Source: a virus
Taxonomy: Duplodnaviria > Heunggongvirae > Uroviricota > Caudoviricetes
Strand: one strand, 5' to 3'
Virus record (IMG/VR): IMGVR_UViG_2744054976_000003
Length of the DNA: 4,528 nt
Part shown: in pieces, positions 1,150 through 4,528 of the stretch
Layout of the letters: every line of letters starts with the position of its first letter
How positions within the stretch are numbered: position 1 is the first letter of the stretch
Notes under the pieces: model-generated
The model's database searches: none
What the model saw: the letters and a program-made list of their open reading frames with translations, nothing else
What the model was told of the DNA's origin: nothing
Made by a program: the position numbers and the translations under genes

Positions 1150-1668
1150 ATGGCAATGCCGCGCAAACTCAAGTTAATGAACGTCTTTCTGAACGGCTAC
1201 AGCTATCAGGGCGTTGCAAAGTCCATCACGCTGCCAAAACTGACCCGTAAGCTCGAAAACTATCGCGGTGCGGGGATGAACGGCAGCGCACCGGTAGACC
1301 TCGGCCTTGATGACGATGCGCTGTCAATGGAGTGGTCGCTCGGGGGCTTCCCGGATTCGGTTATCTGGGAGCTTTACGCCGCAACCGGTGTGGATGCCGT
1401 ACCGATTCGTTTTGCAGGCTCTTACCAGCGCGACGATACCGGCGAAACGGTGGCCGTCGAGGTGGTCATGCGTGGACGTCAGAAAGAAATCGACACCGGC
1501 GAGGGCAAACAGGGAGAAGACACCGAGTCGAAAATCTCCGTGGTCTGCACCTATTTCCGGCTGACGATGGACGGTAAGGAGCTGGTCGAAATCGACACCA
1601 TCAACATGATTGAGAAGGTGAACGGCGTCGACCGGCTGGAGCAACACCGCCGCAATATCGGCCTGTGA
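1150..1668 (+). CDS. FII: Phage tail tube protein (P2 gpFII-like)
   Basis: 172-aa ORF from ATG 1150 to TGA 1666-1668 with a strong upstream RBS. The translation (MAMPRKLKLMNVFLNGYSYQGVAKSITLPKLTRKLENYRGAG…) is recognised as P2-type tail tube. Size and position directly after the sheath gene fit. Confidence 0.93.
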   Translation: MAMPRKLKLMNVFLNGYSYQGVAKSITLPKLTRKLENYRGAGMNGSAPVDLGLDDDALSMEWSLGGFPDSVIWELYAATGVDAVPIRFAGSYQRDDTGETVAVEVVMRGRQKEIDTGEGKQGEDTESKISVVCTYFRLTMDGKELVEIDTINMIEKVNGVDRLEQHRRNIGL

Positions 1669-1696: not shown

Positions 1697-1724
1697 TTAA
1701 CCCCGATTCAGAAGTGAGAAAACC

Positions 1725-2000
1725 ATGAACAAAGAAAATGTCATTACCCTGGACAATCCGGTCAAGCGTGGTGAGCAGGTTATCGAACAGGTCACGCTGA
1801 TGAAACCCAATGCCGGGACGCTGCGCGGTGTCAGTCTGGCTGCGGTCGCGAACTCAGAAGTCGATGCACTGATTAAGGTGCTGCCGCGCATGACGGCACC
1901 GATGCTGACCGAGCAGGAAGTCGCCGCGCTGGAACTGCCTGACCTTGTGGGGCTGGCCGGTAAGGTGGTCGGTTTTTTGTCGCCGAACTCGGTGCAGTAA
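1725..2000 (+). CDS. E: Tail assembly chaperone (P2 gpE-like), zero-frame product
   Basis: 91-aa ORF from ATG 1725 to TAA 1998-2000 (MNKENVITLDNPVKRGEQVIEQVTLMKPNAG…GFLSPNSVQ). It sits between the tube and tape measure genes, as chaperone genes do in contractile and siphovirus tail modules, and has a slippery heptamer near its 3' end. Confidence 0.9.
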   Translation: MNKENVITLDNPVKRGEQVIEQVTLMKPNAGTLRGVSLAAVANSEVDALIKVLPRMTAPMLTEQEVAALELPDLVGLAGKVVGFLSPNSVQ

Positions 2001-2152
2001 CGTTTCCGAAAAATCTCTCGGTCGATGACCTGATGGCTGATGTGGCAGTGATATTTCACTGGCCGCCATCAGAACTGTATCCCATGAGCCTGACCGAACT
2101 CATCACATGGCGCGAAAAGGCGCTCCGGCGAAGCGGAAGCACGAATGAGTAA
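1725..2152 (+). CDS. E+E': Tail assembly chaperone frameshift fusion (P2 gpE+E'-like), about 142 aa, made by a -1 shift at 1973-1979
   Basis: After the slip the -1 frame reads from 1979: VAELGAVTFPKNLSVDDLMADVAVIFHWPPSELYPMSLTELITWREKALRRSGSTNE then stop at 2150-2152. This 57-codon extension has no ATG near its 5' end and no separate RBS, so it is reachable only by frameshifting. 85 aa from E plus 57 aa gives about 142 aa. Confidence 0.85.
1973..1979 (+). promoter_or_regulatory. Programmed -1 ribosomal frameshift slippery heptamer T-TTT-TTG
   Basis: Zero-frame codons are GGT TTT TTG (1971-1979), fitting the X-XXY-YYZ pattern. A -1 slip here continues in an open frame to TAA at 2150-2152. This matches the conserved chaperone frameshift of long-tailed phages (P2 E/E', lambda G/GT). 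Confidence 0.85.
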
Positions 2153-4528
2153 CAATGTAAAATTACAGGTATTGCTCAGGGCTGTTGACCAGGCATCCCG
2201 CCCGTTTAAATCCATCCGTACAGCGAGCAAGTCGCTGTCGGGGGATATCCGGGAAACACAAAAATCACTGCGCGAGCTGAACGGTCACGCATCCCGTATT
2301 GAGGGATTCCGCAAGACCAGTGCACAGCTTGCCGTGACTGGTCATGCACTTGAAAAGGCACGGCAGGAAGCCGAAGCCCTTGCCACACAGTTTAAAAACA
2401 CCGAACGTCCGACCCGTGCTCAGGCGAAAGTGCTGGAATCCGCAAAGCGTGCGGCGGAGGACTTACAGGCGAAATATAACCGCCTGACGGATTCCGTTAA
2501 ACGCCAGCAGCGGGAACTGGCCGCTGTGGGAATTAATACCCGCAATCTTGCACATGATGAGCAGGGACTGAAAAACCGTATCAGTGAAACCACCGCACAG
2601 CTTAACCGTCAGCGCGACGCGCTGGCGCGTGTCAGTGCGCAACAGGCAAAACTTAACGCAGTAAAACAGCGTTATCAGTCCGGAAAGGAACTGGCCGGAA
2701 ATATGGCCTCAGTGGGCGCTGCCGGTATGGGGATTGCGGCGGCGGGAACGATGGCCGGTGTTAAGCTACTGATGCCCGGTTATGAGTTTGCGCAGAAAAA
2801 CTCAGAATTGCAGGCCGTGCTAGGTGTGGCAAAAGACTCCGCCGAAATGGCCGCGCTACGCAAGCAGGCGCGCCAGCTCGGCGACAATACCGCCGCCTCG
2901 GCGGATGATGCGGCCGGTGCACAGATTATCATCGCGAAAGCGGGTGGGGATGTTGATGCCATTCAGGCGGCAACGCCGGTCACGCTGAACATGGCGCTGG
3001 CAAACCGTCGCACGATGGAGGAAAACGCCGCCCTGCTGATGGGGATGAAATCTGCCTTTCAGCTTTCAAACGATAAGGTTGCTCATATCGGGGATGTTCT
3101 CTCCATGACGATGAACAAAACCGCCGCCGATTTTGACGGTATGAGCGATGCGCTGACCTATGCCGCACCTGTGGCAAAAAATGCCGGTGTCAGCATTGAA
3201 GAAACCGCCGCAATGGTCGGGGCGCTGCATGATGCAAAAATCACAGGCTCAATGGCGGGGACGGGAAGCCGTGCCGTGTTAAGTCGCCTGCAGGCACCGA
3301 CGGGAAAAGCATGGGATGCACTCAAAGAGCTTGGAGTGAAAACCTCAGACAGCAAGGGAAACACCCGACCAGTATTTACCATTCTGAAAGAAATGCAGGC
3401 CAGTTTTGAGAAAAACCGGCTCGGTACTGCCCAGCAGGCCGAATACATGAAAACCATTTTCGGGGAGGAGGCCAGCTCAGCCGCCGCTGTGCTGATGACT
3501 GCCGCGTCAACCGGAAAGCTGGACAAACTGACCGCTGCGTTTAAAGCCTCAGACGGAAAGACCGCAGAACTGGTAAATATCATGCAGGACAACCTCGGCG
3601 GTGACTTTAAGGAGTTTCAGTCCGCTTATGAGGCGGTGGGGACTGACCTGTTTGACCAGCACGAAGGCGCACTGCGTAAGCTCACGCAGACGGCCACAAA
3701 GTATGTGTTAAAACTCGACGGCTGGATCCAGAAAAACAAATCACTGGCGTCAACCATTGGCATCATTGCCGGTGGCGCGCTGGCGCTTACTGGCATCATC
3801 GGTGCCATTGGTCTTGTAGCCTGGCCGGTTATCACTGGCATCAATGCCATCATCGCGGCAGCAGGCGCAATGGGGGCAGTCTTCACGACGGTTGGCAGTG
3901 CTGTTATGACGGCCATCGGGGCGATTAGCTGGCCGGTTGTGGCCGTGGTGGCCGCCATTGTCGCCGGGGCGTTGCTTATCCGTAAATACTGGGAGCCTGT
4001 CAGCGCATTCTTTGGCGGTGTGGTTGAAGGGCTGAAAGCGGCATTTGCGCCGGTGGGGGAACTGTTCACGCCACTTAAACCGGTGTTTGACTGGCTGGGT
4101 GAAAAGTTACAGGCCGCGTGGCAGTGGTTTAAAAACCTGATTGCCCCGGTTAAAGCCACACAGGACACCCTGAACCGTTGCCGTGACACGGGCGTCATGT
4201 TCGGGCAGGCACTGGCTGACGCGTTGATGCTGCCGCTTAATGCGTTCAACAAACTGCGCAGTGGTATTGACTGGGTACTGGAAAAACTCGGTGTTATCAA
4301 CAAAGAGTCAGACACACTTGACCAGACCGCCGCAAGGACTAATGCCGCCACGTATGGCAGCGGTGGTTATATTCCGGCGACCAGCTCTTATGCAGGCTAT
4401 CAGGCTTATCAGCCGGTTACGGCACCGGCTGGCCGCTCTTATGTAGACCAGAGTAAAAACGAATATCACATCAGCCTGACGGGTGGTACTGCGCCGGGGA
4501 CACAGCTTGACCGCCAGTTACAGGATGC
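2145..4528 (+). CDS. T: Tail tape measure protein (P2 gpT-like), 3'-truncated by the window edge
   Basis: ATG at 2145-2147 (MSNNVKLQVLLRAVDQASRPFKSIR…) opens a frame with no stop through 4528, about 794 codons. The N-terminal part is rich in Q/R/A/L/K and helix-like. A long Gly/Ala/Ile-rich hydrophobic stretch (…STIGIIAGGALALTGIIGAIGLVAWPVITGINAIIAAAGAMGAV…) is typical of tape measure proteins. Its position right after the frameshifted chaperone is canonical. The start overlaps the E' stop by 8 nt. Confidence 0.93.
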   Translation, partial: MSNNVKLQVLLRAVDQASRPFKSIRTASKSLSGDIRETQKSLRELNGHASRIEGFRKTSAQLAVTGHALEKARQEAEALATQFKNTERPTRAQAKVLESAKRAAEDLQAKYNRLTDSVKRQQRELAAVGINTRNLAHDEQGLKNRISETTAQLNRQRDALARVSAQQAKLNAVKQRYQSGKELAGNMASVGAAGMGIAAAGTMAGVKLLMPGYEFAQKNSELQAVLGVAKDSAEMAALRKQARQLGDNTAASADDAAGAQIIIAKAGGDVDAIQAATPVTLNMALANRRTMEENAALLMGMKSAFQLSNDKVAHIGDVLSMTMNKTAADFDGMSDALTYAAPVAKNAGVSIEETAAMVGALHDAKITGSMAGTGSRAVLSRLQAPTGKAWDALKELGVKTSDSKGNTRPVFTILKEMQASFEKNRLGTAQQAEYMKTIFGEEASSAAAVLMTAASTGKLDKLTAAFKASDGKTAELVNIMQDNLGGDFKEFQSAYEAVGTDLFDQHEGALRKLTQTATKYVLKLDGWIQKNKSLASTIGIIAGGALALTGIIGAIGLVAWPVITGINAIIAAAGAMGAVFTTVGSAVMTAIGAISWPVVAVVAAIVAGALLIRKYWEPVSAFFGGVVEGLKAAFAPVGELFTPLKPVFDWLGEKLQAAWQWFKNLIAPVKATQDTLNRCRDTGVMFGQALADALMLPLNAFNKLRSGIDWVLEKLGVINKESDTLDQTAARTNAATYGSGGYIPATSSYAGYQAYQPVTAPAGRSYVDQSKNEYHISLTGGTAPGTQLDRQLQD

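Follow-up and report, generated by a model that had tools for sequence, protein, structure and literature searches.

A P2-type programmed -1 frameshift site in the E/E' tail assembly chaperone region of a P2-like phage, preceded by a conserved Shine-Dalgarno-like motif

The analyzed stretch of DNA, 4,528 nucleotides (nt) of the Caudoviricetes record IMGVR_UViG_2744054976_000003 (referred to as the window), carries part of a P2-like tail operon. Within it, the small gene E and the overlapping segment E' are situated between the tail tube gene FII and the tape measure gene T, which is the same order as in P2 (Table 1), and FII as the upstream neighbor fixes the synteny of tube, chaperone and tape measure. 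The slippery heptamer T_TTT_TTG lies where the reading frames of E and E' overlap, and we assign it, with a probability of roughly 0.93, as the programmed -1 ribosomal frameshift site of a P2-type tail operon.

The arrangement of the reading frames is compact. The codon GGT (Gly83) ends at base 1973 and is followed by TTT (Phe84) and TTG (Leu85), which gives the register X_XXY_YYZ, and the TTG lies 7 codons ahead of the E stop with 6 sense codons in between. Because a TAA closes the -1 frame upstream, the E frame and the -1 frame share a stretch of just 12 codons, in which the heptamer is located. Read from 1979, the -1 frame comprises VAELGAVTFPKNLSVDDLMADVAVIFHWPPSELYPMSLTELITWREKALRRSGSTNE (VAELGAV...STNE) and stays open for 57 codons. 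Its stop falls within ATGAGTAA (2145-2152), which also holds the ATG of T, so that both genes overlap by 8 nt, and the predicted E+E' fusion has a length of 142 amino acids (aa). An earlier note on this DNA had given the position of the heptamer, its distance of 7 codons to the E stop, the exactly 57 open codons up to a stop overlapping the T start and a product of approximately 142 aa, and these coordinates, the register and the sizes hold. The product of gene E was matched by PF10109 (Phage_TAC_7, 'tail assembly chaperone proteins E, or 41 or 14'; E = 2.2e-11) and PHROG 103 ('tail protein', 1.2e-44), and it is 98% identical to an E. coli 'tail protein E (GpE)'. The E' translation was matched by PF06528 ('Phage P2 GpE', 2.4e-22) and PHROG 1756 (5e-28).

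The heptamer string alone is not improbable, as the bare TTTTTTG is present twice in the window with 1.28 occurrences expected, and the significance of the site therefore rests on the register, the architecture of the open reading frames (ORFs), the Pfam identity of the -1 ORF and the conservation. Three other in-register X_XXY_YYZ heptamers are located in T, namely A_AAA_AAT (3176-3182), G_GGA_AAA (3302-3308) and G_GGA_AAC (3356-3362). The -1 frame behind them stays open for no more than 5, 33 and 15 codons, respectively, so that they are probably incidental.

Table 1. Features of the tail operon in the window and the basis of their assignment.
Feature	Position	Strand	Basis
Tail sheath gene, 3' two-thirds	ends 1137	+	Pfam Phage_sheath_1/1C
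Gene FII, tail tube protein	1150-1668	+	PF04985 (Phage_tube) 3.2e-60; P2 annotation
Gene E, zero-frame tail assembly chaperone, 91 aa	1725-2000	+	stop TAA 1998-2000; annotated E in P2
TAA closing the -1 frame upstream	1961-1963	+	-1 ORF opens at 1964, three codons before the heptamer
Shine-Dalgarno-like AGGTGGTC, candidate 5' stimulator	1963-1970	+	would pair with the 16S rRNA 3' end GAUCACCU
Slippery heptamer T_TTT_TTG, -1 ribosomal frameshift site	1973-1979	+	register, conservation, P2 annotation at the homologous base
E' segment, 57 codons in the -1 frame and stop TAA 2150-2152	1979-2152	+	PF06528, PHROG 1756; codon periodicity
Gene T, tape measure protein, first 794 codons (3' end beyond the window)	2145-4528	+	PF10145 (PhageMin_Tail) 1.7e-45

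For the conservation analysis, relatives were drawn from 18 further phages obtained by tblastn, spread over 418 records, and from 160 loci of IMG/VR and GTDB genomes that were found through the pattern AD[IV]Ax[IV]FHW of the E' domain. Since these loci were gathered through the E' domain, the sampling is independent of the heptamer. The analyzable loci numbered 180, with 152 distinct 112-nt contexts. Frame 0 was open upstream and the -1 frame was open from the heptamer into E' in all 180 loci; E' had a length of 57-58 codons in 141 of the 152 contexts, and the geometry of three open -1 codons before the heptamer was the same in 80 of them. An in-register T_TTT_TTN was found in 150 contexts (TTG in 137, TTA in 9 and TTC in 4), and the remaining two carry A_AAT_TTT (Escherichia phage 503458, 652-658 of its locus) and G_GGA_AAG (Mannheimia PHL101, 682-688). 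The heptamer was retained in Burkholderia, Ralstonia, Acidovorax, Aeromonas and Serratia phages at a protein identity of 37-56%. The residue ahead of Phe is variable (G, S, T, P, L, N or D), but the third base of its codon is always T. On a neighbor-joining tree of 106 gap-free relatives, which was built from flanking columns, the third positions of the heptamer required 0 (1973), 0 (1976) and 6 (1979) parsimony changes, compared to 6-26 changes (mean 17.3) at the E-frame third positions from -48 to -15. At the level of sequence comparison, these counts demonstrate that the heptamer is under purifying selection acting on the nucleotides. A deviating case is the chromosome of Enterobacter sp. 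EA-1 (CP025776.1; approximately 895-905 of locus L128), where a run of T5 instead of T6 puts E' into the +1 frame relative to E, either due to a homopolymer sequencing error or in an inactivated prophage.

With regards to RNA structure, the consensus fold of 106 relatives contained no conserved helix downstream of the heptamer, and the following 45 nt folded no better than shuffled sequences in the 152 contexts (median z of -0.34, 5% below -2). A 3' stem-loop or pseudoknot at a distance of 5-9 nt, as in dnaX, IS911 and IS3, was not found downstream of the heptamer. This agrees with the earlier note, which saw no convincing downstream stimulator and only a weak stem near 1982-1993. That stem exists as 1981-1985/1990-1994 with 5 base pairs (bp), -6.0 kcal/mol and z = -1.7, and it starts 1-2 nt past the heptamer. 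As a stimulator it was rejected, as no more than 49 of 127 relatives can form it and compensatory changes are lacking. Folding of 1980-2080, which had been proposed as a check, yielded z = -3.0; this value is caused by a hairpin at approximately 2030-2071 (CUGAUGGC...GCCAUCAG), which is located about 50 nt past the heptamer within the E' coding sequence, is absent from the consensus fold and was discarded as a stimulator as well. A terminator-like hairpin at 1955-1974 corresponds to 1 match with 0.5 expected, can form in just 41 of 127 relatives and was rejected as well. In its permissive mode, Rfam returned no matching family at the site, and the sole match elsewhere in the window was due to chance. 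Ribosome collision at the E stop was considered as another source of stimulation and rejected, as the distance to the stop ranges from 1 to 22 codons among relatives and the 6 codons in the window would be too short for a pair of collided ribosomes.

The Shine-Dalgarno (SD)-like sequence directly upstream of the heptamer was not mentioned in the earlier note and may be the only new element of the site. The duplex of AGGTGGTC and GAUCACCU comprises 8 bp and has a calculated energy of -12.8 kcal/mol, the second strongest value on the + strand of the window (mean -2.35, standard deviation 2.38). The strongest anti-SD complement of the window, GAGGTGGTCA at 1459-1468 with -15.8 kcal/mol, lies inside FII and is directly followed by the in-frame ATG 1469. 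Over the 152 contexts, the anti-SD affinity had a single dominant maximum immediately ahead of the heptamer (-10.7 vs. -2.6 kcal/mol, standard deviation 2.0), and AGG[TG]G was present at the exact offset in 131 contexts, compared to a background of 0.4% for the same phase in other parts of these genes. Among relatives, position 1968 is either G or A, both of which would be able to pair with U1532. The motif is encoded by the codons of Lys80-Val81, a conserved K/E-V dipeptide, and the choice among their synonyms is strongly skewed. AAG outnumbers AAA by 118:2 at the motif codon, whereas the ratio is 159:363 in the rest of E of the same loci; likewise, GAG:GAA is 15:2 compared to 315:469 elsewhere, and GTG accounts for 135 of the 145 Val codons (93%) compared to 38% elsewhere. 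The parsimony analysis yielded 1 change at 1964 and 6 at 1967, while the adjacent third positions 1961 and 1970 had changed 19 and 26 times. The motif is thus conserved at the synonymous sites 1964 and 1967 beyond what the protein requires.

AGGTG (1963-1967) is separated from base 2 of the heptamer (1974) by 6 nt (1968-1973), which corresponds to the shortest limit of the spacing for SD-type stimulation. Sharma et al. found motifs of the AGGKG class to be stimulatory in experiments when placed 6-17 nt before base 2, and the AGGKG motif was outside the set that they searched genome-wide (PMC4066793). In the competing reading, the frameshift site is real and the upstream AGGTG is no stimulator but represents a codon-biased K/E-V motif, pauses the ribosome, provides an internal ribosome binding site before TTG 1977 or damps the slip. 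We rate the chance of this at slightly below one half. It is favored by the derivation of the motif from the conserved K/E-V codons, by the resemblance of an SD followed by 7 nt and TTG to an initiation site, and by the full 8-bp duplex, which would leave 3 nt to the P-site codon and thereby equal the +1 spacing of prfB (PMC5009743). However, conservation of the amino acids cannot explain the codon choice at both positions or the single change at 1964 beside the many changes at its neighbors, and dual coding cannot explain the constraint because the -1 frame is closed there.

Several points weigh against a stimulated programmed frameshift at this site. A conserved downstream structure is lacking, and the motif follows in part from the K/E-V dipeptide. 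Among 19 clusters formed at 70% identity, just 12 have it in the interval of 6-17 nt, and the 7 of 19 deep clusters without the motif nevertheless keep the heptamer; it is absent from KS14, Klebsiella 3LV2017, Serratia KSP20, an Arsenophonus element and phage 503458. The fusion product is known for P2, while for this exact sequence it is predicted. For the E/E+E' frameshift of P2, Christie et al. (2002) reportedly described a shift of approximately 10% and an essential E'. As U_UUU_UUG is weak, such a figure of ~10% would need a stimulator. In E. coli reporters, UUUUUUG was indeed a poor shifter: it gave 0.118% without a stimulator, and the values for the IS911 context and the IS3 pseudoknot were 0.247% and 0.765%, respectively (Sharma et al., supplement, PMC4066793). 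Finally, the spacing of 6 nt is at the lowest edge of 6-17 nt and falls short of the 9-14 nt that apply to stimulation of the dnaX type (PMC5009743).

Given a weak heptamer, no RNA structure, a reported efficiency of ~10% and a constrained SD-like motif, a 5' stimulator would be the most economical reading. Nonetheless, it is only tentatively that we suggest AGGTG(G/A)T as a so far undescribed 5' stimulator at unusually short spacing, conserved in most P2-like phages; we would sooner doubt this proposal than rely on it. No description of an SD stimulator at the P2 site was found in the literature searched, which did not cover the key primary papers and thus leaves the absence of such a description unproven.

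Two further explanations concern the frameshift itself. Transcriptional slippage, in which the polymerase adds one U on the T6 run so that some mRNAs encode E+E' in one frame, could draw on the site being a homopolymer run and on assembly entries with E and E' in frame (GFFV in P0013 and others, GFV in P0011 and P0012), which point to changes of the run length at the DNA or sequencing level. However, productive slippage in bacteria has been described for runs of approximately 9 A or T (PMC5009743), whereas the run comprised exactly six T in 149 of 150 contexts and never more than 7. Furthermore, the seventh base of the T_TTT_TTN heptamers is G, A or C but never T and the codon register is fixed, as expected for re-pairing of tRNAs, and where T6 is replaced, G_GGA_AAG or A_AAT_TTT are found, which are heptamers for ribosomal slips and not homopolymers. 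Slippage of the polymerase is therefore considered very improbable.

Least probable of all is that E' represents a separate small gene with its own start, either a GTG overlapping the E stop or ATG 2033, and that the heptamer is incidental. Such a view is in line with database practice: PGAP called a separate 51-aa coding sequence, 'GpE family phage tail protein', in E. coli Z247 (NZ_CP021207.1, homologous to 1997-2152) with a GTG overlapping the E stop, a 'P2 GpE family protein' of its own is given in several phage records, and many others have a 'hypothetical protein' at the site, which is consistent with the remark in the earlier note that annotators commonly miss it. In the window, however, the codon 1997-1999 is GTA and not GTG, which makes a PGAP-style call impossible here, and in no more than 13 of the 152 relatives does the -1 ORF have its first start codon at the PGAP position. 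After the slip point, the first ATG, GTG or TTG of the -1 ORF is ATG 2033, located 18 codons further on; it would give an ORF of 39 aa, which does hold the Pfam domain, but the anti-SD complementarity ahead of it is weak (-5.3 kcal/mol). Between the E stop and ATG 2033, the column entropy by E' codon position was 0.65/0.47/1.21 bits. Because the entropy follows the E' frame, this stretch is under selection at the protein level without a preceding initiation codon, and together with the GTA, the 13 of 152 relatives and the weak pairing this makes an independent initiation of E' unlikely. An incidental sequence would also not be expected to be invariant at synonymous sites, as the heptamer is, and published work on P2 is cited for a 142-aa fusion from the E start (PMC3091744).

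In a programmed frameshift at T_TTT_TTG, most ribosomes would read through the heptamer and stop at the end of E, yielding the 91-aa gpE. A minority (reportedly ~10% in P2) would slip back by one base on the heptamer, either by a tandem slip of tRNA-Phe from UUU to UUU and tRNA-Leu from UUG to UUU, or by a slip of the P-site tRNA alone, after which Phe-tRNA enters. Starting at 1979, a further 57 codons would then be translated in the -1 frame to give the 142-aa gpE+E'. The SD-like AGGTGGTC might raise the slip frequency by pairing with the 16S rRNA of the elongating ribosome. Both proteins have the same N-terminus, and by analogy with gpG/gpGT of lambda, gpE and gpE+E' would act as chaperones on T in a ratio set by the slip frequency. 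In the same analogy, gpE and the E part of the fusion would coat the tape measure protein, the E' part would recruit the tube protein, and neither would be found in the virion (PMC5009743).

The peptide at the junction depends on the type of slip, as the tandem slip leads to GFL-VAEL and the P-site slip to GFF-VAEL, and either may apply. The same ambiguity has been discussed for U_UUU_UUA of HIV (PMC5009743). The junction VVGFL-VAELGAV given in the earlier note is accordingly correct for the tandem slip, but not as the sole product, because GFF-V is mechanistically possible as well. Database entries for E+E' disagree in this respect, with GFL-V in phage Wphi and GFF-V in several 142-aa E. coli entries. 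Some entries of 140-141 aa from read-archive assemblies show GF-V, as would result from in-frame fusions with a shortened T run. If the P2 RefSeq entry is joined at the base marked as frameshift site, which is presumably the case, GFLF would result.

The frameshift may also affect the translation of T. The overlap of the T ATG with the E' stop is 8 nt in 118 of the 152 relatives and 4-17 nt in nearly all others, and the SD of T is weak with -3.7 kcal/mol compared to -8.4 kcal/mol for FII. Since T is nearly devoid of an SD and approximately 95% of the relatives have an overlap between its ATG and the E' stop, T may be translated mainly by frameshifted ribosomes. If this is so, the output of tape measure protein would be tied to that of E+E'.

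The stretch 1650-2200 is 95-99% identical at the DNA level to 74 phage records, nearly all of which are P2-like Peduovirus, and the whole window has prophage matches in 1762 of 5426 complete E. coli genomes, with a best identity of 97.3%. NCBIfam holds no family for E, E' or the fusion, a sequence search of the PDB found no solved relative, and an antisense ORF at 1697-2059(-) had no match in the family searches. Between the stop of the tube gene (1668) and the start of E (1725), a perfect 9-bp hairpin (CCGGTCAGC cag GCTGACCGG) is located at 1676-1696. Phage 186 has a similar hairpin in the same place (275-301 of its extracted locus), annotated as 'tI; partial terminator of pJ transcript', and the hairpin in the window could make E, T, U and D less strongly expressed than sheath and tube.

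The frameshift as such is textbook phage biology, setting the chaperone ratio for a tail of correct length, and recognizing the site improves the annotation but teaches nothing new. The SD-like constraint beside a weak heptamer without RNA structure would be of modest value to the recoding field, as it offers a simple explanation for the efficiency of the P2 signal. If the stimulator is real, it would explain how the weak U_UUU_UUG reaches ~10% in P2 without a 3' RNA structure, and the known range of SD-type spacing would be extended.

For comparison, the cassettes of dnaX and of IS911/IS3 likewise have a sequence complementary to 16S rRNA upstream of an X_XXY_YYZ heptamer. In dnaX, the SD is located 10 nt from the heptamer, whereas the distance in the window is 6 nt to heptamer base 2. 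Unlike these cassettes, the window combines a U-rich, intrinsically weak heptamer with the lack of a conserved 3' stem-loop or pseudoknot.

A closer parallel in architecture is offered by lambda, whose chaperones gpG and gpGT are said to have been studied by Levin et al. (1993) and Xu et al. (2004, 2013, 2014). This pair also shares its N-terminus and arises from a -1 slip that occurs at low frequency close to where the upstream ORF ends. The genes G and GT are also encoded between those of the major tail protein and the tape measure protein, and the ratio of the products matters for assembly (PMC5009743). The same paper places the P2 site in the lambda G-T class, with an efficiency of the P2 type of 2-3 fold that of lambda (~3%). 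However, the heptamers of lambda and the window differ, and the tail is contractile in P2 but non-contractile in lambda. No similarity to gpG/gpT was seen, as judged from the Pfam matches of the window, which belong to P2- and Mu-type families only. Within the P2 family, Mannheimia PHL101 uses the lambda heptamer G_GGA_AAG. The resemblance to G/GT, which the earlier note had pointed out together with the P2 architecture, thus extends to the arrangement of the genes and would be a functional analogy rather than homology.

Among the relatives of P2, orf51/orf52 (gene H) of phage 186 and E/E' of the Burkholderia phages KS5, KS14 and KL3 carry T_TTT_TTG in register in the overlap, between the genes for tube and tape measure. 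The E proteins of phage 186 and the Burkholderia phages have a length of 94-111 aa and are 49-73% identical, with 6-22 codons from the heptamer to the E stop. The same upstream AGGTG or GAGG as in the window is found in phage 186 and some Burkholderia and Ralstonia phages, whereas KS14 differs from the window in this regard. Conservation of the site in KS5, KS14 and KL3 has been reported before, and no downstream hairpin was found there or in P2 (PMC3091744).

The closest match is P2 itself. Its shift takes place at TTTTTTG and results in the products E of 91 aa and E+E' of 142 aa (PMC3091744). The RefSeq record NC_001895 lists E, a two-piece E+E' coding sequence and a 'site of -1 translational frameshift' at the homologous base, and its note on E+E' reads 'shares amino terminus with gpE; -1 frameshift; essential tail protein'. 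Yersinia phage L-413C carries the same frameshift annotation. P2 and the window are approximately 98% identical at the DNA level and alike in the gene order FI-FII-E-E'-T, in the sizes of E (91 aa), E' (57 codons) and the fusion (142 aa), and in the overlap of the E' stop with the T start. No difference exists over GGTCGGTTTTTTGTCGCCGAACTCGGTGCAGT, which comprises the heptamer with its flanks, and from 30 nt upstream to 20 nt downstream of the heptamer, P2 differs by only one upstream substitution and the E stop. The latter is TGA in P2 and TAA here, a change that is synonymous in the -1 frame (GTG vs. GTA, Val). Beyond this, E contains a few substitutions, and the C-terminus of E' reads SGSTNE here and SGNTNE in P2. 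The P2 record and the literature already give the site, just as the earlier note had stated that it is not novel: the site in the window is the known P2-type programmed -1 frameshift site, and its recognition is an annotation catch rather than a discovery.

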